DNA of 41,888 bases from Thermoanaerobaculia bacterium (GTDB taxonomy: Bacteria; Acidobacteriota; Thermoanaerobaculia; Gp7-AA8): assembly GCA_016650215.1 (NCBI GenBank), contig JAENWF010000010.1, forward strand, positions 1 to 41,888, written 5' to 3'. This document shows positions 3,701 through 28,432 of the stretch, piece after piece. A model generated the notes under the pieces. That model was not told the origin of the DNA and ran no database searches. It was given only the letters and a program-made list of their open reading frames with translations. Each line of letters starts with the position of its first letter. The first letter of the stretch is position 1. The position numbers and the translations under genes are program-made.

Positions 3701-4317
3701 AGCTCGAGAAGATCGGGCCGGTGAACGTGCTCGCGATCGACGAGCACCAGGAGCTCGAGGGACGGGAGTCATTTCTGCGGACGCAGCGCGACGACCTCGT
3801 GCAGGCGATCGACTCGCTGCGCGGCACGATCCGGAAGATCAACCTCACCTCACGCGAGCTTTTCCGTGAGGCGTTCAATGCGGTCAACGAGTCGTTCACG
3901 CAGATCTTCATGTCACTCTTCGGCGGCGGCACCGCGAAGATGCAGTTGCTCGATGAGGAGGATGTGCTCGAGAGCGGCATCGAGCTCATCGCACAGCCGC
4001 CAGGAAAAAGAAACCAGTCGATCGCGCTGTTGTCAGGCGGCGAGCGTGCGCTGACCGCGCTCGCACTCCTCTTCGCGATCTTCCGCTACAAGCCGTCCCC
4101 GTTCTGCATCCTCGACGAAGTCGACGCCCCGCTCGACGAAATCAACAACGAGAGATTCGTGCGCCTCGTCCGCGACATGTCGCGCGACACGCAGTTCATC
4201 GTGATCACGCACTCGCGCCGCACAATGGAAGCCGCGGATGTGCTTTACGGAGTCACGATGGAGGAGGCAGGATGTTCGAGGCTGGTGAGCGTGCAATTCG
4301 CCGATCTGGAAGGGTAA
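799..4317 (+). CDS. smc: Chromosome segregation protein SMC
   Basis: MFRLEKLEIAGFKSF start, Walker A GPNGCGKSN, long coiled coils, hinge, LSGGE signature, Walker B/D-loop ILDEVDAPLD. Start moved to ATG 799. Confidence 0.97.
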   Translation: MFRLEKLEIAGFKSFYEPALLTFPAPMTAVVGPNGCGKSNICDAIIWVLGENRAAHIRGETMDDVIFQGSARRRPLSMGEVTLTLKSENGHPAADDGRITLNRRVFRTGESEFRLNGKRVRMKDISDILMDTGLGIRNYSVMEQGKIDLILSNKPQDRRRLIEEAAGITKYKTKRRAAEMKLEETQQNLLRIDDTLSEVTRNLNSLKRQAGKARRHREVAEELSTAKRTLYKGRIVAARSEQQAAQLAVADAQARESEIAAQLATDEAELAETRTTHAGRASRASAVREEMAGLTAGVERLRSFLQQSETNLGDLIQRIDGARTQITTLESEAAEQQSQLEEKTRALEAARTERNQLREGADAVERDRQEHSDEVRQHEKAVADARESLMRTIARISESRNQVHQIEIAVEKCEFYLTKLSENARKAAVSRDGARATMNDWDARVQQAEQVLAAAQQKARETLAQRDGLNASRDGMRESLSSARDRVSQTTYKIDSLRTLLTSLESQDEDVRRAILEIIPNAAAAAESVRAAEGYEAALDTLLREVSKAVVLASSDTAIEAIQRLRERGAGRGAFITLDYQPGGEGSRRGDAAYSVVGDGPVAEAVRQAIPEAYIVSDLRQAIDRAKERPHATFVTLEGDVVRGPLLVGGKTEGATPGVFSLKRQLSDLESLLGNEETRASRLAAELQSVEEEARAADDSRILAEERARAADGDLREQRSDRDRANAELQRFEKDLAVASEEQTLYVEEKEQLIARKNAAIAELQALEKTERDTQETIRSHEEQLTTLRASFEEITQVASKARVNVEAAGGNVNAIQREHENLTRVVVSLGARVKQLQVEIETLGTKQTETEKAVEDARAQLATSISRSHELSETRIALEAEVADLETRVQELEARAVNSREVWNTAKTSLFESERRADRATSAFELLREQIALDLHAGVDALAEVEPPADDEARFNLESEVNKLADQLEKIGPVNVLAIDEHQELEGRESFLRTQRDDLVQAIDSLRGTIRKINLTSRELFREAFNAVNESFTQIFMSLFGGGTAKMQLLDEEDVLESGIELIAQPPGKRNQSIALLSGGERALTALALLFAIFRYKPSPFCILDEVDAPLDEINNERFVRLVRDMSRDTQFIVITHSRRTMEAADVLYGVTMEEAGCSRLVSVQFADLEG

Positions 4318-4362
4318 GGATTTCATGAAGCAACCGCCGGAAGGCGGCAGTCGTACCCCAAC

Positions 4363-4786
4363 ATGCGTCTTGGCCTTATCTTGCTGCTGGTGAACGGCGT
4401 CGCATTCGGCGTCTTCCTCATCGCGCGTCCTTCCGAGGCGGCGGAACTTGACCGTAAAGATGTTCTCTTTCGGCAGAGGTGCCTTTGAAATGAGTTCCGG
4501 CGATCCTTGGACCTACATCGCTGCTCGACCGCTCCATAACTGGAGCGAGTGGCATGGCGGCGAGCTCTCGTGGGTTAAGGCCATCGAGATTGCCAATTGG
4601 CCGGCGTTAGTCACCGCAATCATCGCAACCGAAGCGCTCGGTGGTACGTTCTCCCTCGGCTATCTTCGCGCTTCATGGGTTCGCGCGGTCTTCTTCGCAA
4701 TCCTGACAACTCTGCAGTGGTTGAGCGCAGGGTTCGTCGTTGATCGCGCCATCCGAAAGCGGCGTTCTTCCAGAAGCGCCGTCTAA
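4363..4786 (+). pseudogene. Frameshifted small membrane protein (cassette-like ORF 1)
   Basis: ATG 4363 gives MRLGLILLLVNGVAFGVFLIARP... (signal/TM-like) and stops at 4488. The +1 frame (track ORF 4448-4786) continues with hydrophobic segments and ends in GTCTAAC. Confidence 0.55.
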
Positions 4787-4871
4787 CTGTTGCACCTCAG
4801 GAAATGTGGGGGCAGGTCTCCACTCTGCTCAATGTGGAAAACGGCACACGTGAACGCGTGATACGTTGGGT
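4781..4871 (+). other. Degenerate attC-like site 1, interrupted by an IR element
   Basis: R''-like GTCTAAC (4781-4787) holds the stop codon. TGTTGCACC pairs imperfectly with ACGTGAACG with a bulged G. R'-like GTTGGGT at 4865-4871. The R''-L'' spacer is shorter than canonical. Confidence 0.5.
4801..4842. repeat. Partial copy A of the GGGGTCAGGTCTCCAC IR element
   Basis: 4801-4831 equals 6035-6066 except for one missing T. The right arm is decayed (GTGGAAAAC). Confidence 0.85.
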
Positions 4872-4877
4872 GGCGCC

Positions 4878-5336
4878 ATGACACTTCGCGATCATCTTCG
4901 CCTTCGACTTGAGACGATCCGCTTCGAATCATGGGCGCCAGTAGTCGTGGCAGTAGGTGCGTTCGGCGAAATCCTCGAACGGGTCGGCGCTCTATCACCG
5001 GAGGCTGAGACTCGCATTGGAATGCTGCCTATCGCTTCCGTCCTTGAGCGAGTCATGCCGGGCGAGGGTGGGTTCTTCACCGTTCCCGAAGCACAAGCGA
5101 GACTCCTCGGCGGCTCGCGAGCCTTCCTAGCCTCGGCTGCACGAAACCTCTCCTTTGTCGGTGTCGTCGGTGAAGGCACGCGCGAAGCAACTCTCACGTC
5201 GGCTCTACGAGCTCTCGCTGCTGAGATTGATTCTGCCTTACATAGACCAAGGCCGTCAGACGGTGGTGGAGGTGACGAGGCTGTCGCGTGGCTATCCGTT
5301 GCGGACCTAGGCGGCAAGAAGTCGCCGTCCAACTAG
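4878..5336 (+). CDS. Hypothetical protein (cassette-like ORF 2)
   Basis: 152-aa ORF starting 7 nt after GTTGGGT and ending at GTCCAAC-TAG. Codon usage looks less GC-biased than host genes. No family recognised. Confidence 0.65.
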   Translation: MTLRDHLRLRLETIRFESWAPVVVAVGAFGEILERVGALSPEAETRIGMLPIASVLERVMPGEGGFFTVPEAQARLLGGSRAFLASAARNLSFVGVVGEGTREATLTSALRALAAEIDSALHRPRPSDGGGGDEAVAWLSVADLGGKKSPSN

Positions 5337-5546
5337 CGATGCACCGGACGCAGGTCGCTCCGCCGCCGACGCGAGGAAATGCGGGCGTCAGGTCTCCACA
5401 CTAGTCAGAATCATTCAACTGCCGGTGGAGACCTGACCCCATTCGCGGGGCCCCGGCGCTTCCGCGCTTCGCTCGACCCGGCCAACATGTTCGTCGCCCG
5501 TGACAGGCGAAATTGGTAACGCAGCTCAATGTCAGATACGTTAGGA
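5327..5546 (+). other. Degenerate attC-like halves flanking IR element copy B
   Basis: 5' half GTCCAAC-TAGCG-ATGCACCGGAC (5327-5349) and 3' half GCAGCTCAATGTCAGATAC-GTTAGGA (5521-5546). The L boxes do not match well, so the halves may come from different sites. Confidence 0.5.
5376..5447. repeat. Copy B of the IR element (MITE/REPIN-like)
   Basis: 13-bp perfect IR, GTCAGGTCTCCAC (5387-5399) / GTGGAGACCTGAC (5425-5437). The 25-nt spacer resembles the start of the copy C spacer. Confidence 0.9.
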
Positions 5547-5560
5547 CGACCACAACATTC

Positions 5561-5953
5561 ATGTCGGAAATGGAAAAGCTTGATCGAACAATTCTCCTCG
5601 GCAATATCTCGGCAATTGCGCTCGCAATCGCAGGAGCTGCACTTGTTTTTGTCGTGTGGCAGTGGGTGTCGAGACACTCTCAGTTGCAGCTGCTGGTTGG
5701 GGTCGCTGCGACTCTAGCTCTTGCTGTTGTCTACGTGGCTGCAGCATCGCGGATCGTTAGTGGCGCGTATCAAGTAAACGGTTCCACGGCGACGGAGCAT
5801 GATTTTGCCAGCACTGCGTACGTTCATGCCGGTCCGCTTGTGCAGCTCGCACCGGTCGTGGCAATCGTGTCAACGTGGGCGGTCCTGGTTGTCGCCTCGC
5901 GCAGGTTCGCTCGCCGCGATAGCCGCGGCCCAAACTCCACGCGCAGCAGCTGA
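5561..5953 (+). CDS. Hypothetical membrane protein, about 3 TM segments (cassette-like ORF 3)
   Basis: ATG 5561 follows GTTAGGA. Three hydrophobic stretches. The 3' end runs through GCCCAAAC...GCGCAGCAGCTGAC, which resembles an attC 5' half. Confidence 0.7.
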   Translation: MSEMEKLDRTILLGNISAIALAIAGAALVFVVWQWVSRHSQLQLLVGVAATLALAVVYVAAASRIVSGAYQVNGSTATEHDFASTAYVHAGPLVQLAPVVAIVSTWAVLVVASRRFARRDSRGPNSTRSS

Positions 5954-6034
5954 CACGGCCCGACGCTGGCCCGGCAGCCGAGCTGCCCTGAGTCCAAAAA
6001 GCTAGAATGAGTCACGTCTTCGGCAAGGCGAATC

Positions 6035-6182
6035 GAAATGTGGGGGTCAGGTCTCCACTCTGCTCAGAATCCCTTCAGCTTCCAATCCAACAGTGCGCAT
6101 CGGTGTGCGACTAACTTAACGCAGCACCTTGGACAGCGAGGTGGAGACCTGACCCCGTTCGCGCCCGTTCGCGCCGTTCGCG
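6035..6182. repeat. Copy C of the IR element with a triplicated right flank
   Basis: 16-bp perfect IR, GGGGTCAGGTCTCCAC (6043-6058) / GTGGAGACCTGACCCC (6141-6156), 82-nt spacer, then CCGTTCGCG three times to 6182. Confidence 0.9.
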
Positions 6183-6228
6183 TGGCCTCGGAAGTCGGTG
6201 AATAGTCATCTGGTTGTATCCTTACGAA

Positions 6229-6438
6229 ATGAGCGAGTTCACCGTTGAGATCGAGCGCGAAGAGGATGGCCGTTGGATCGGAGAAGTCGCCGATCTGCCT
6301 GGCGTCCTTGCGTACGGATCCACACGCGAAGAAGCGGTCGCCAGGGCGAAGGCTCTCGCCTTTCGCGTGCTTGCCGATCGGATTGAGCACGGCGAGGACA
6401 TTCCAGAGATTCGCGGCGTTTTCGCTGTTCACGGATGA
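6229..6438 (+). CDS. hicB: Type II TA antitoxin, HicB family (short, RNase H-like domain only)
   Basis: EIEREEDGRWIGEVADLPGVLAYGSTREEAVARA is the typical HicB N-terminal pattern. ATGA overlap with hicA. Confidence 0.9.
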   Translation: MSEFTVEIEREEDGRWIGEVADLPGVLAYGSTREEAVARAKALAFRVLADRIEHGEDIPEIRGVFAVHG

Positions 6439-6647
6439 ATTGGCCTTCGTCCAAAGCGTCGCGCGTTCTAGCGGCGCTACTTCGGATCGGGTGGTCGGTA
6501 AAGCGCCAGGCGGGTGGGTCGCATCGTGTGCTTTCCAGAGTGGGCTGGCCGGACATCATTTTCGCGTTCCATGACCAGGAAGAGATCGGTCCGCGCATGT
6601 TGTCGCGCATCGCGAAGAAAACGGGGCTGACCGCGTCAGACCTGTAG
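6435..6647 (+). CDS. hicA: Type II TA toxin, HicA family mRNA interferase
   Basis: 70 aa with GW...GGSH motif, a second His (AFHD) and EIGPRMLSRIAKKTGL C-terminus. Confidence 0.92.
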   Translation: MNWPSSKASRVLAALLRIGWSVKRQAGGSHRVLSRVGWPDIIFAFHDQEEIGPRMLSRIAKKTGLTASDL

Positions 6648-6680: not shown

Positions 6681-6845
6681 ATGAAGAAAGAGATGTTCGC
6701 CGAACTTCTTGAGAGTGTGAAGGAGGCTGGCCGGATCCACCGCGGCGAAGCACGTCCGTCTCGCGAGTATGTTTTCAAAGCGCGCGGTGTGGCGAGCGGG
6801 CTGCGCGGCAGCAAGTGCGGATCCGTTAAGCGGACGCGCGTTTAA
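6681..6845 (+). pseudogene. Truncated XRE/HigA-like (NadS/YiaG-type) antitoxin, N-terminus only
   Basis: MKKEMFAELLESVKEAGRIHRGEARPSR resembles the N-terminal helix of HigA-type HTH antitoxins. The HTH part and the upstream toxin are missing. Confidence 0.6.
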
Positions 6846-7086
6846 GTTCTTCGCGGACGACTCGGCGCAAGATTTTCTCGATCGGTTCGGTCTGGTTGTT
6901 CACATACTCTCGCAGCGCGGCATTGATCATGGTTTGATAGTTCCCACCGCCAGCCTTGTTCACTTGCTCGCGAAACCAGTCGAGAACATCCGTATCGAAC
7001 CGAATTGTGATCCGTGTTTTTCCGGGTTCGGACGGAACTACCGCGCCCCGCTTGCCTTTCTCAAAATCGTATTCGCGTTTCATCAT
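6826..7086 (-). CDS. brnA: BrnA-family antitoxin (RHH), orphan
   Basis: EYDFEKGKRG, KTRITIRFDTDVLDWFR and GNYQTMINAALREY motifs. Confidence 0.9.
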   Translation of the reverse strand: MMKREYDFEKGKRGAVVPSEPGKTRITIRFDTDVLDWFREQVNKAGGGNYQTMINAALREYVNNQTEPIEKILRRVVREELKRASA

Positions 7087-9878: not shown

Positions 9879-9993
9879 GCGCGGGGCATTCTAGCCCAAA
9901 TATCTGAGAGTGCTAGGCTTATCTCCTTGTTCCAAACTTTACCCGCGGTGCTAAAATTCTTTCAGCAAGGTGCGTCGAAGGAGGAAAAGATCG

Positions 9994-10230
9994 ATGTCGA
10001 ATCGTACCGCTGACATTCAACAGGTTCTCAGCACGGAAGACCCGGAATTTCGCGAGTGGATCGAAGAGCATCACAGGTGCGAACACCGCCTGAACGAGCT
10101 CACCGCCAAACACGAGGTCACTACGGATGAGGAACTCGAAGAGAAAACCTTGAAGAAGCGGAAACTCCTACTCAAAGATCACATGGCCGAGCGGATTCGA
10201 ACCTACGAAACCTCGCACGCAAACGCCTGA
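9994..10230 (+). CDS. YdcH/DUF465-family small coiled-coil protein
   Basis: EHHRCEHRL...LKKRKLLLKD pattern. Strong SD AAGGAGG upstream, terminator downstream. Confidence 0.85.
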   Translation: MSNRTADIQQVLSTEDPEFREWIEEHHRCEHRLNELTAKHEVTTDEELEEKTLKKRKLLLKDHMAERIRTYETSHANA

Positions 10231-10284: not shown

Positions 10285-10378
10285 CAACATTCAACACTCA
10301 ACATTCAACATTTAACATTCCGCTTCGGAGGTCACAAGGACACGGGAATGTTAAATGTTGAATGTTGAGTGTTGAATG
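10284..10378. repeat. Inverted array of tandem heptamers, (TCAACAT)n / (ATGTTGA)n
   Basis: Perfect 34-bp IR (10288-10321 / 10345-10378) with a 23-nt loop. Confidence 0.95.
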
Positions 10379-10433: not shown

Positions 10434-11243
10434 ATGAAGCGCGCTGATGTCGGGCGTGGCCTGCGTCGCGGGGTCTTCGTCATCCCGACGTTCCTCACGG
10501 TCATGAATCTTTTCTTCGGCTTCCGCTGCATGATCAACAGCACGCGGGCGCTGCAGGCGATCACCGAGGGGAACAATGCGGCGGCGATCGACTTCTTCGA
10601 GAAGGCTTGCTTCGCGCTTTTCGTCGCGGCGATCTTCGACACGTTTGACGGCCTGATCGCGCGGCAGCTTCACGCGACGAGCGAGTTCGGCAAGGAGTAC
10701 GACTCGCTCGCCGACGTCGTCACGTTCGGCGCCGCCCCCGCGCTCCTCGTTTACGCATGGGGTCTCCGGACCCTCGGCAATCTCGGCGGCGCAATCGCGT
10801 TTCTATTTCTCGTCGCCGTCTCGCTCCGCCTCGCTCGCTTCAACGTGATGACCGGCAAGAGCGACCATCGATACTTTGTCGGACTCCCGAGCCCTGGCGG
10901 TGCGCTGACGATTGCGTCGATCGTCAACTTCGCTCACGCGCCGGTCTTCCAGCATGACTTCGCGATGGTGATGCTCATCGTGACGACGGTCGTCGCGTTC
11001 TCGATGGTCTCGCCGATCCGCTACCGCAGCCAGAAGGGTCTGAACCTGCAGAAGGAACGCTCGCTCATGTATTTCGTGATGCTGGCGCTGATCGTCGGCG
11101 TCGCGAGCAAGTGGCCGAAGGAGTTCTTCTTCGCCGGCGCGATTCTCTATCTGGTATCGGGACCGCTGATCAAGCTCTGGTCGGTCGCATTCCCGTCGCG
11201 ATCGCTCCCGCCTGAAGTGCTCGAGCCGATCGAGGCGCCTTGA
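10434..11243 (+). CDS. pssA: CDP-diacylglycerol--serine O-phosphatidyltransferase
   Basis: DTFDGLIAR...SEFGKEYDSLADVVTFGAAPA, LRLARFN and FVGLPSP motifs. Confidence 0.92.
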   Translation: MKRADVGRGLRRGVFVIPTFLTVMNLFFGFRCMINSTRALQAITEGNNAAAIDFFEKACFALFVAAIFDTFDGLIARQLHATSEFGKEYDSLADVVTFGAAPALLVYAWGLRTLGNLGGAIAFLFLVAVSLRLARFNVMTGKSDHRYFVGLPSPGGALTIASIVNFAHAPVFQHDFAMVMLIVTTVVAFSMVSPIRYRSQKGLNLQKERSLMYFVMLALIVGVASKWPKEFFFAGAILYLVSGPLIKLWSVAFPSRSLPPEVLEPIEAP

Positions 11244-12716: not shown

Positions 12717-12892
12717 AATGGGGTCAGGTCTTCGTTTCGCTGGTTCTCTACACATTGTGGCGAACCGCGAACGAATACCTGGCCTCCTCAAGCCTTCGCC
12801 AGGAAAATGGGTCACGTATTCGTTCGCTGGTTCTCTACGCATTGTGGGGAACCAGCGAAACGAAGACCTGACCCCCTCAAGCTCTCGCCAGG
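12717..12892. repeat. Doublet of GGGGTCAGGTCT-type palindromes (REPIN-like) between convergent genes
   Basis: Perfect 27-bp outer IR (12720-12746 / 12849-12875). Inner arms 12767-12784 / 12810-12827 pair at 16 of 18 positions. Confidence 0.92.
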
Positions 12893-16830: not shown

Positions 16831-18218
16831 CGGAGGGCCGCGCTCTTGTTCAACGTCTCCTCCCACTCCGTCGCCGGATTCGAGTCGTAGACGATGCCGG
16901 CGCCAGCCTGCACATAGGCGCGCCCGTTCGCGAGCACGATCGTCCGGATCGTGATGCAGGAATCGAGATTGCCGGAAAAGCCGGCGTACGCGACCGCGCC
17001 GGCGTATGGCCCGCGGCGCGTCTGCTCGTAGTGGTCGATCAGTTCCATTGCGCGAATCTTGGGCGCGCCGCTGACGGTGCCGGCGGGAAAGCATGAGAGG
17101 AATACGTCGACCGGCGTGCGATCTTCGCGCACGACTCCTTCGACGTCGCTGACGAGGTGCATGACATGGCTGTACCGCTCGATGCGCCGGAAACTGGTCA
17201 CTACGACCGATCCGGCTCGCGCTATCCGCCCCAGGTCGTTGCGCCCGAGGTCGACGAGCATCAGATGCTCCGCGTTCTCTTTCGGATCGTCCAGGAGCGC
17301 GGTCGCGTACGCGGCATCTTCGTCCGTGGTCTTCCCGCGCGGGCGCGTTCCGGCGATCGGTCGAGTTTCTGCGCGCGTGCCGGTGACGCGGACGAGCATC
17401 TCCGGAGACGCGCCGACGAGCGTGCACTCATCGCTGCGGAGGAGAAACATGTACGGCGACGGATTCACCGACCGGAGCGCGCGATAGAGCGTCAGCGCCT
17501 CCGTTTCAGGAAACTCGGTGCTCCATCGCTGCGAGAGAACGATCTGAAAGATCTCGCCCGCGATGATTTCCTCTTTCGCCTCGCGCACCATCGACTCGAA
17601 CTGCTCGCGGGTGAAGTTCGACTCGAAGCCCGCGTCGGACGCGCTGTGCGGCAGATCGAGCAGATCGACTTCCGCTCGCCGCAGCGTCGCGATCGCCCGC
17701 TCGAGTCTTCGCTCGGCTTCCTCGACCGACGCGTTCGGATCGGACGTGAAGAGGTTCACTACGACGTAGAGCCGCTGGCGTACGTGATCGAAGACGACGA
17801 CGTTGTCGAAGAAGAGGAGCTTCGCGTCGGGCGCGCCGAAGTCGTCGGGATGTGAGTCCGGGATCTTCTCGAGCCAGCGCGAGACGCCGTAGCCGAAGTA
17901 GCCGACCGCGCCGCCGAAGAAGGGCGGGAGCGCGTCCTCGTTGTGGACGCGGAGCGGAACGAGCTCGCGATTCAGGAGTGCGGCCGGATCGGGGGTCGAC
18001 GCGTCGAACACCAGATTGCGGCGCGGCTCGAAGCCGACGAAGGAGTAACGGCCGAGGTTTTCTCCCCGCTCGACGCTCTCGAAGAGAAACGCCTCGCTGC
18101 CGGCGGGAGAGAGCGCGGCGAAGGCCGCGACCGGCGTGATCGCGTCGGCGCTCAACTCGCGAACGAACGGGATCACATCGTAGTCGCCGCGCAGCCGCTC
18201 GAATTCATCGCGATTCAT
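16782..18218 (-). CDS. trpE: Anthranilate synthase component I
   Basis: FLFESVE, GEIFQIVLS, NPSPYMF, RPIAGTRPRG, EHLMLVDLGRND, FPAGTVSGAPK and QAGAGIV motifs. The 3' end overlaps the convergent gene by 49 nt. Confidence 0.92.
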   Translation of the reverse strand: MNRDEFERLRGDYDVIPFVRELSADAITPVAAFAALSPAGSEAFLFESVERGENLGRYSFVGFEPRRNLVFDASTPDPAALLNRELVPLRVHNEDALPPFFGGAVGYFGYGVSRWLEKIPDSHPDDFGAPDAKLLFFDNVVVFDHVRQRLYVVVNLFTSDPNASVEEAERRLERAIATLRRAEVDLLDLPHSASDAGFESNFTREQFESMVREAKEEIIAGEIFQIVLSQRWSTEFPETEALTLYRALRSVNPSPYMFLLRSDECTLVGASPEMLVRVTGTRAETRPIAGTRPRGKTTDEDAAYATALLDDPKENAEHLMLVDLGRNDLGRIARAGSVVVTSFRRIERYSHVMHLVSDVEGVVREDRTPVDVFLSCFPAGTVSGAPKIRAMELIDHYEQTRRGPYAGAVAYAGFSGNLDSCITIRTIVLANGRAYVQAGAGIVYDSNPATEWEETLNKSAALRYSVGLAKELLSKRTF

Positions 18219-28255: not shown

Positions 28256-28432
28256 TTTTGGAGTGCGGACTCAGAGGGAACGAAAAGCCGCCGGCTGAAG
28301 CCGGCGCCACGTCATGCATGGCTCGTGGCAGCATCCGTAAGCGACGTGGCGCCGGCTTCAGCCGGCGGTTTCCGTCCTCTGTTGCGCCAGATCGCAGCGT
28401 TAGAAAGCGGCGGCGACCCGCCGCACTCCGAA
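28256..28432. repeat. Nested REP doublets: a GTGG-type pair inside a GGAGTGCGG-type pair
   Basis: 26-bp perfect IR (28288-28313 / 28343-28368), flanked by TTTTGGAGTGCGG (28256-28268) and AAAGCGGCGGCGACCCGCCGCACTCCGAA (28404-28432). Confidence 0.88.

Follow-up and report, generated by a model that had tools for sequence, protein, structure and literature searches.

Integron cassettes move only while their attC sites can fold, and two kinds of mobile element are established as invaders of these sites. The IS1111-attC elements, which target attC, are autonomous and RNA-guided, carry a DEDD transposase and take up a defined position in the site; the group IIC-attC introns are retroelements of about 2 kb that combine a ribozyme with a reverse transcriptase. 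Repetitive extragenic palindromic (REP) units, imperfect palindromes of 20-40 nt with GTAG at their head, give their name to REP doublets forming hairpins (REPINs) and to the REP-associated tyrosine transposases (RAYTs). IS1111-attC insertion sequences appear as a known element group (PMC11187229), the group II introns associated with attC include group IIB introns in halophiles (PMC7923331), and RAYT and the integron integrase, IntI, are compared as proteins acting on folded single-stranded DNA (PMC8266576). Within the literature on attC together with REP, REPIN, RAYT or miniature inverted-repeat transposable elements, we found no description of a REP or REPIN inside an attC. Here we describe such an arrangement in a window of 41,888 nucleotides (the whole stretch of DNA analysed) on contig JAENWF010000010.1 (C10) of a Thermoanaerobaculia bacterium, assembly GCA_016650215.1 (G000), a single metagenome-assembled genome whose 3.19-Mb assembly is 88% complete.

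A sequence-only reading of this window had proposed, between positions 4363 and 6182, an integrase-less cassette array with an inverted-repeat element at every junction, and had taken the element to be a different, short non-autonomous one and the whole to be a candidate for an undescribed gene-capture system. It is likely, though with real room for doubt, that the region 4363-6213 is a cluster of attC sites lacking integron integrases (CALIN), with one long-type attC per cassette, and that it was invaded afterwards by REPIN-like elements of one sequence type (C-type) inside the attCs; the same CALIN perhaps extends to 6831. The capture machinery is that of an ordinary integron, and therefore the locus is not a new gene-capture system. 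The unusual part is the nesting of REPINs in attCs, which is seen in this genome only and not in the relatives' arrays that were examined.

The attC sites were identified with two home-built covariance models (CMs), R1 and R2, trained only on sites from relatives. An integron integrase (TIGR02249 above the curated cut-off) occurs in 57 of the 124 genomes of the family, a tally that, like the other family tallies, takes in the unpublished genomes G061, G109 and G110. On the 3' side of intI these relatives carry attCs of 98-106 nt or of about 134 nt with RYYYAAC...GTTRRRY ends, and their cassette open reading frames (ORFs) are co-directional with intI. A strict detector, requiring RYYYAAC...GTTRRRY, at least six of seven complementary bases and ends paired in the DNA fold, recovered seven sites in G005, seven in G041, four in G094 and others elsewhere on the 3' side; on the 5' side it gave one match over nine loci, which we take for chance. 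Many relatives' contigs stop within 1-2 kb beyond the 3' end of intI, which suggests that repeated attCs may break assemblies and that the arrays there are under-sampled. Model R1 was trained on 21 sites of 98-106 nt (left out were one 64-nt site, two of 123 nt, two sites from L052, the 134-nt site and one probable chance match), and R2 on 17 sites of the ~134-nt type, for which four of the 20 sites fetched were dropped as poor or unclear at the ends. The ~134-nt type is typical of the family and is present in 33 of the 124 genomes.

The highest-scoring site of the array in the window is attC 2, at the second junction (J2; 5327-5546, plus strand). It is a long-type site of about 134 nt that is split by a REPIN, with R'' GTCCAAC and L'' at 5327-5361 and the variable region, L' and R' GTTAGGA at 5450-5546. 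Model R2 matches it at 5413-5546 (34.5 bits, E 1.7e-7), and a hidden Markov model (HMM) of the long type matches at 5450-5545, model positions 38-133, with 42.9 bits (E 7.2e-11 genome-wide). At the third junction (J3), attC 3 (5928-6035, plus strand) has lost L'-R' but keeps L'', most of the variable region and an R'' that one inserted nucleotide has turned into GCCCAAAC; the long-type HMM covers 5932-6035, model positions 4-103, at 20.4 bits (E 6.3e-4 genome-wide). The first, attC 1 (J1; 4781-4871, plus strand), is badly decayed: R'' GTCTAAC and a short piece of L'' are followed by L'-R' GTGAACGCGTGATAC-GTTGGGT, most of the stem is gone and there is no attC fold. Its 3' end at 4850-4871 is identical at 22 of 22 positions to the 3' end of the attC beside intI in the closest relative, G021 (E 1.9e-4), and its right half scores 19.9 bits with the HMM (E 5.5e-6 in a search of 15 kb around the array). 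Over the whole genome the long-type HMM gives three matches at E<0.01, namely J2, J3 and a site at C33:721-838. The matches at J2 and J3 lie about 390 nt apart, so that at least two attCs stand close together, as is asked of a CALIN; the limit between attC sites in the IntegronFinder papers is reportedly 4 kb.

The boxes on which the sequence-only reading was built are all present: GTCTAAC at 4781, GTCCAAC at 5327, GCCCAAAC at 5928-5935, GTTGGGT at 4865 and GTTAGGA at 5540. As core boxes of the form RYYYAAC...GTTRRRY they read GTCTAAC/GTTGGGT at J1 and GTCCAAC/GTTAGGA at J2, the final base of the latter being off consensus, and stop codons fall in or at the R'' box. Motif counts exceed chance: GATACGTTRGG has two copies on both strands of the genome, which are the J1 and J2 sites, CGCCGTCYAACT has three, two of them at this locus, and four of the nine genome matches to GCCGYCYAACT fall in this array and a second one described below, which together make up 0.38% of the genome. 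J1 and J2 also have in common a collinear chain of words outside the palindrome, and the pairing over 10 nt between GCCGTCCAAC and GTTGGGTGGC, with two G:T pairs, is as had been read.

A TIGR02249 search of the genome found no integron integrase on contig C10, in agreement with the proposed absence of an integrase. Its only matches were a truncated fragment on C211, which covers model positions 14-144 at 164.7 bits, and the remnants on C120. The fragment on C211, at 632-1033 (L001), lies between a dipeptidase gene and another ORF and has no adjoining array. The remnants at C120 18070-20106, one of them with a TAG stop, are followed on their 3' side by three good attCs (53.3, 39.5 and 55.1 bits), and this locus is the genome's own degenerate integron, with no REPINs. 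The array in the window is like a CALIN or a sedentary chromosomal integron in its co-oriented small orphan genes and toxin-antitoxin pair, with an attC after each gene, in its RYYYAAC/GTTRRRY ends, in having no intI on the contig and in being compositionally foreign DNA. It differs in that its three attCs have all been interrupted and have lost their fold, and in that it sits in a housekeeping intergenic gap and not beside attI, whereas elsewhere in the family the arrays follow the 3' end of intI and share its direction.

The inverted-repeat element was correctly placed at each junction, with copies at 4801, 5376 and 6035. Its core, GGGGTCAGGTCTCCAC, occurs with at most one mismatch at 4808(+), at 5384(+)/5425(-) and at 6043(+)/6141(-); the window holds seven core matches at up to three mismatches, against 0.34 expected, and none of 100 shuffles reached seven. 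Element e2 (5369-5447, plus strand) is a 79-nt hairpin within attC 2, with arms at 5384-5399 and 5425-5440, a minimum free energy (MFE) of -21.5 kcal/mol and a z-score of -4.96. Element e3 (6026-6166, plus strand) is a 141-nt hairpin that begins where the homology of attC 3 ends; its arms, at 6043-6058 and 6141-6156, are 100% complementary (MFE -33.3 kcal/mol, z -4.73). Inside attC 1 there is a remnant at 4801-4831 (plus strand), consisting of the left arm alone, which is collinear with e3 at 6035-6066 and forms no hairpin (z -0.84). Hairpin z-scores over the elements range from -4.7 to -9.1, the elements measure 79-141 nt and contain no ORF, and an Rfam search of the window at the gathering threshold gave no match.

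The C-type arms GGGGTCAGGTCTCCAC carry short outer extensions, and two sister families, the A- and B-types, have the outer 12 nt, GGGGTCAGGTCT, in common with them and are scattered over some 40 contigs. This 12-mer has 84 matches in the genome against none for a control, 30-70 in several relatives, and at least one in 35 of 61 genomes of the family. On contig C109 a 329-aa gene at 5474-6460 is flanked by B-type arms in inverted orientation, at 5467 and 6516, and its product matches NF047646 (REP-associated tyrosine transposase) with 87.4 bits against a cut-off of 80, as well as Pfam Y1_Tnp. The same nesting of a RAYT between arms is seen in the relative G050 (74.2 bits, slightly below the cut-off), and in G076 a RAYT split over two frames (41.8 bits) lies between a C-type arm and an arm one base from C-type. 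In this assembly we found no C-type RAYT; the single clear RAYT has B-type arms. Because the superfamily is multi-copy, dispersed and flanks RAYT genes, the element is, to judge by these comparisons, a REPIN-like, non-autonomous member of the REP/RAYT system, a known kind, and not an undescribed one.

Like REPINs, these elements are short, palindromic, non-coding and multi-copy, fall into sequence families with conserved ends in common, have a RAYT nested between inverted arms, and have arms that begin GTGG or GTAG from the loop side (GTGGAG.../GTAGAG...). They differ in that a single arm is not palindromic, so that the hairpin needs a pair of arms, in their length of up to 140 nt with variable inner parts, and in that this genome's C-type copies stand in cassette arrays instead of being dispersed and have no cognate RAYT in the assembly. 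A B-type member lies elsewhere in the window at 12720-12875, in ordinary intergenic DNA, with arms GGGGTCAGGTCTTCGT and a second, degenerate copy nested inside.

These elements lie inside attCs. There is attC homology on both flanks of the element, and the HMM matches of J2 and J3 end at the edges of the palindrome. When 5362-5448 (87 nt) are deleted in silico, J2 matches the model over its full length (positions 2-133) and no longer in part, with 56.8 bits, which is the outcome that the sequence-only reading had looked for on removing the element. Of 200 random deletions made as a control, 196 were scored; their median was 22.75 bits, and the best-scoring ones remove the same interval. At J3, taking out e3 carries the match no further than model position 111, and the 3' part of the attC is still missing; directly after the right arm of e3, at 6156-6186, where that missing half would be expected, there are three tandem copies of CGTTCGCGCC. 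As had been claimed, the element lies between the attC halves at J1 and J2; at J3, too, it stands where the attC is broken. The insertion points correspond to model positions of about 21 at J1, 36 at J2 and 103 at J3, and this variation argues for several separate insertions. Contigs from four runs of one study, all labelled permafrost metagenome and likely to be the source samples, cover the region: X1, among these, spans 4300-6058 with no difference, and in the four runs no contig join skips a REPIN, although contigs cannot show absence; two apparent joins are other copies of the REPIN.

A search of the whole genome with the C-type 16-mer at up to two mismatches gave 18 matches, all of them either in the window at 4.8-6.2 kb (5) or on contig C194 at 12.9-20.7 kb (13). 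On C194 the C-type elements stand at six junctions of a second cassette array, in which model R1 recognises three intact attCs on the cassette strand at L010 6567-6666 (41.8 bits), 9897-9998 (57.5 bits) and 10528-10629 (60.8 bits). The first and third of these are otherwise well-folded sites in which GTT of R' is replaced by GCT, a change that may inactivate them. A fourth attC of C194, K4, is cut by a REPIN, its 3' part beginning at 17643 and the REPIN arm ending at 17642. The second of the three intact sites, K7 (C194 19897-19998), is a textbook attC hairpin, with seven of seven R pairs and z-scores of -4.2 to -4.5, and holds no palindrome. Taking both arrays, six of seven recognisable attCs carry the C-type palindrome, inside the site at J1, J2, J3 and K4 and within about 15 nt of it at K3 and K8, where it lies outside an intact attC. 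All C-type copies face the same way with respect to the cassettes, and each array is marked by a loop variant of its own. At two junctions of C194 (14109-14230 and 16445-16566) a unit of about 120-130 nt, made of a conserved spacer and a REPIN, is repeated, as in a cluster of the bacterial interspersed mosaic element (BIME) type. Among the cassette-like genes of that array, one at L010 2610-2870 encodes a ParE-like toxin and another, at L010 7672-8511, a protein in which a DpnII/MboI restriction-endonuclease domain scores 171.5 bits.

The sequence of events that we favour would begin with the cassettes, laid down as a short integron array that came to lie in the gap between smc and PAP2 and lost contact with its integrase. 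Non-autonomous C-type REPIN copies would then have inserted within the attCs at differing points. These copies may have arisen by several local insertions, with a RAYT acting on single-stranded DNA, and the insertions may have gone into or beside those attC regions that readily extrude as hairpins. Parting R''-L'' from L'-R' would have ended use of the sites by the integrase, after which the cassettes would be fixed and the sites would decay. The stronger proposition, that the C-type REPIN and its RAYT (none being seen here) home to folded or single-stranded attC regions, strikes us as rather unlikely.

Several observations weigh against an invaded CALIN or against an association of the elements with attC. 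At full length, neither J1 (model R2, 12.2 bits, E 0.26) nor J3 (13.9 bits, E 0.088) is significant on its own. J2 freed of its REPIN still has no attC fold, with none of seven R-box pairs in the MFE structure and z-scores of -0.2 to -1.1, and it forms 17 of the 30 model stem pairs. J2 is therefore identified by its sequence homology and not by structure; neither J1 nor J2 folds into R and L stems with bulged bases, with or without the REPIN, and we have filed the sites of this array as decayed attCs. Three of the nine REPIN loci (K1, K2 and K5) have no detectable attC, and the other 10 attCs of the genome (three on C120, two on C48 and one each on C189, C216, C151, C184 and C33) have no REPIN nearby, so that enrichment beside attC was found in the two arrays and not at these sites. 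None of 46 array or attC loci from relatives has the exact REPIN core; a pattern of REPIN arm plus attC 3' end was matched in two of 123 relatives, neither match being attC-like by eye; and the C-type copies of G076 are single hairpins between ordinary genes. Contigs of the permafrost runs show at least two additional C-type copies whose flanks the assembly lacks, and therefore it is for the assembly that the C-type can be called restricted to arrays. The case for the association comes from one metagenome-assembled genome that is 88% complete. In public data, a 19-mer of the C-subfamily had no match in a collection of genome contigs and six in a collection of metagenome contigs; the six lack both the GGGG start and a second arm, neither attC model matches them, and we take them for chance.

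The same anatomy could have come about with no preference for attC, if the cassettes or arrays already contained the REPINs when they were acquired from a donor whose C-type RAYT was active, or if the REPINs persisted in attC only because it is nearly all the non-coding, unselected DNA that an array without an integrase offers. This we regard as possible, leaning to unlikely. It accords with the want of a C-type RAYT in an assembly whose one clear RAYT has B-type arms, with the foreign composition of the array DNA, with the REPIN-free state of the genome's 10 other attCs and of the relatives' arrays, and with the ordinary intergenic setting of the C-type copies in G076. It fits less well with the density of the elements, nine REPIN loci within about 12 kb where the rest of the genome has an A- or B-type element roughly every 80 kb, with the fact that the A and B types, abundant in the genome, never entered these arrays, or with insertion points that vary among the attCs. 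The array-specific loop variants, moreover, suggest spread within each array and not the import of ready-made copies.

As one of two possibilities the sequence-only reading had offered a different history, in which the element itself joined cassette fragments into an array, and it had taken the mismatched L boxes at the second junction to favour this. Unrelated fragments might be joined by recombination between REPIN copies, for instance, and J2 would then be a chimera of two different attCs. The mismatched L boxes are real, since the halves of J2 are not complementary (those 17 of 30 pairs), and J1 resembles a product of deletion, its right arm having been lost at a short shared GCTCA; deletions can be mediated by direct repeats of this kind. 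The 17 intact long-type sites of relatives, however, form 24-30 of the 30 R/L stem pairs, the genome's own C33 site forms 28, and even halves combined from different intact attCs give 22-30, none of 272 combinations being at 17 or fewer. J2 therefore looks decayed and not chimeric, and its mismatch does not speak for joining. Exchanging halves does not restore pairing either (J3 left with J2 right gives 18 of 30, J2 left with J1 right 17 of 30), and both flanks of e2 are collinear with one attC model and break at a single model position. We consider joining improbable.

Since attC variable regions are the tips of the hairpins and differ between lineages, the palindrome might also be a native, lineage-specific part of attC, an idea to which the alignment of model R2 at J2 lends something by taking the loop and right arm of e2 (5413-5447) as a surrogate R''-L'' box; it is already strongly disfavoured and very improbable, as these arms are also found away from any attC, in 84 copies, and flank a RAYT, the palindrome is absent from 38 attCs of relatives and from 10 others in this genome, its position within attC varies by site, and K3 and K8 have it beside an intact attC and not inside. 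CTGAC is common to the REPIN arm (..AGACCTGAC..) and to the L'' box of attC (..GCAGCTGAC..), which may be chance. Two further candidates were rejected: that the inverted-repeat element is itself the attC of a chromosomal integron, as it has no AAC/GTT cores at its ends and its arms are dispersed genome-wide and flank a RAYT; and that the boxes are chance and the element a REPIN only, which was set aside after the motif counts and the finding of real attCs in relatives.

Compared with the known invaders of attC, the C-type element shares with the IS1111-attC insertion sequences a place inside integron attCs and a single orientation relative to the cassette, and differs from them in being 79-141 nt long, without an ORF and at varying positions. 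The attC group II introns likewise occur in CALINs and land on the folded or single-stranded attC region, as the C-type element may do; no corresponding RNA family was matched in the window by Rfam. It has neither a transposase nor a reverse transcriptase of its own, nor one defined attC position, the marks of an autonomous attC invader. If homing of the C-type were true, it would join IS1111-attC and the group II introns as a third kind of mobile element that invades attC, and among these it would be the first non-autonomous and HUH-based one; such homing would link two systems that work on single-stranded hairpin DNA, RAYT/REP and IntI/attC, and the splitting of attCs would freeze cassettes and seed array rearrangements. 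A palindrome landing in attC would immobilise the cassette, turning a mobile gene into a fixed chromosomal one, and could create repeats by which cassettes are reshuffled or deleted. As the window's attCs are decayed, its three cassettes are probably immobile. Programs that find attC miss sites broken up in this way (until the element was allowed for, scores over the whole site were 8-14 bits here), and therefore cassette arrays in REPIN-rich soil bacteria may be under-counted.

The array occupies the gap between the convergent genes smc and PAP2. These two genes are adjacent in 19 relatives of the same family, where the spacing between match ends runs from about 0 to 3.4 kb, against 3.16 kb here, and in some genera the interval is empty; given this range, the interval is a variable spot. 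The larger smc-PAP2 gaps of relatives hold unrelated ORFs and no copy of the window's palindromic element. Integrase-mediated cassette insertion outside att sites is described in a preprint (10.1101/2022.09.11.507474), and by analogy this could be the route by which cassettes entered the smc-PAP2 gap.

The three ORFs of the sequence-only reading are present, with two corrections: the first is one frameshifted gene, and the third starts at 5561, not 5562. The cassette 1 gene (4363-4786, plus strand) belongs to a conserved small-membrane-protein family (72 homologues reach E<=1e-3 and 31 of these <=1e-10), and its frameshift splits it into frames 4363-4488 and 4448-4786; the N-terminus is encoded in the other frame, 4363-4485 corresponding to residues 1-34 of P0005 (53% over 34 aa) and 4448-4786 to the remainder. 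Cassette 2 (4878-5336, plus strand) encodes 152 aa with no assigned function and a single homologue, P0002, at 39% identity across 97% of its length. The cassette 3 gene (5561-5953, plus strand) encodes a predicted membrane ORFan of 130 aa that has no homologue besides itself among 5.8 billion proteins, and its 3' end overlaps R''-L'' of attC 3. None of the three genes matches any Pfam or NCBIfam family. Their G+C content at third codon positions (GC3) is 0.56-0.65 (0.64-0.65 for the cassette 1 gene), whereas smc, PAP2 and the next gene along have 0.82-0.87; over the genes of both arrays it is 0.56-0.78, all except one lying at 0.56-0.68, and in core genes 0.82-0.90.

After the third cassette, a hicB-hicA toxin-antitoxin pair (6214-6647, plus strand) is possibly a fourth cassette; the toxin matches HicA_toxin (Pfam) at 41.3 bits, and matches to HicB-like and to UPF0150 fall slightly below their cut-offs. 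It is followed at 6761-6831 (plus strand) by a possible fourth attC remnant, a 3' part ending GATCCGTTAAGC with no REPIN, which corresponds to positions 64-133 of the long-type HMM; this candidate is weak (6.9 bits, with E 0.035 when the 15 kb around the array were searched), its likeness to attC ends having been judged by eye. A gene for a BrnA-type antitoxin (52 bits) lies at 6826-7086 on the minus strand, with no recognisable toxin partner in the neighbouring DNA. Two other palindromes of the window drew matches from the attC models: a GC-rich one at 28275-28380 scores 19-26 bits with both models on both strands and is without AAC/GTT ends, and an AT-rich one (38% GC) at 10289-10377, made up of ATTCAAC-like words, gives weak matches on both strands.

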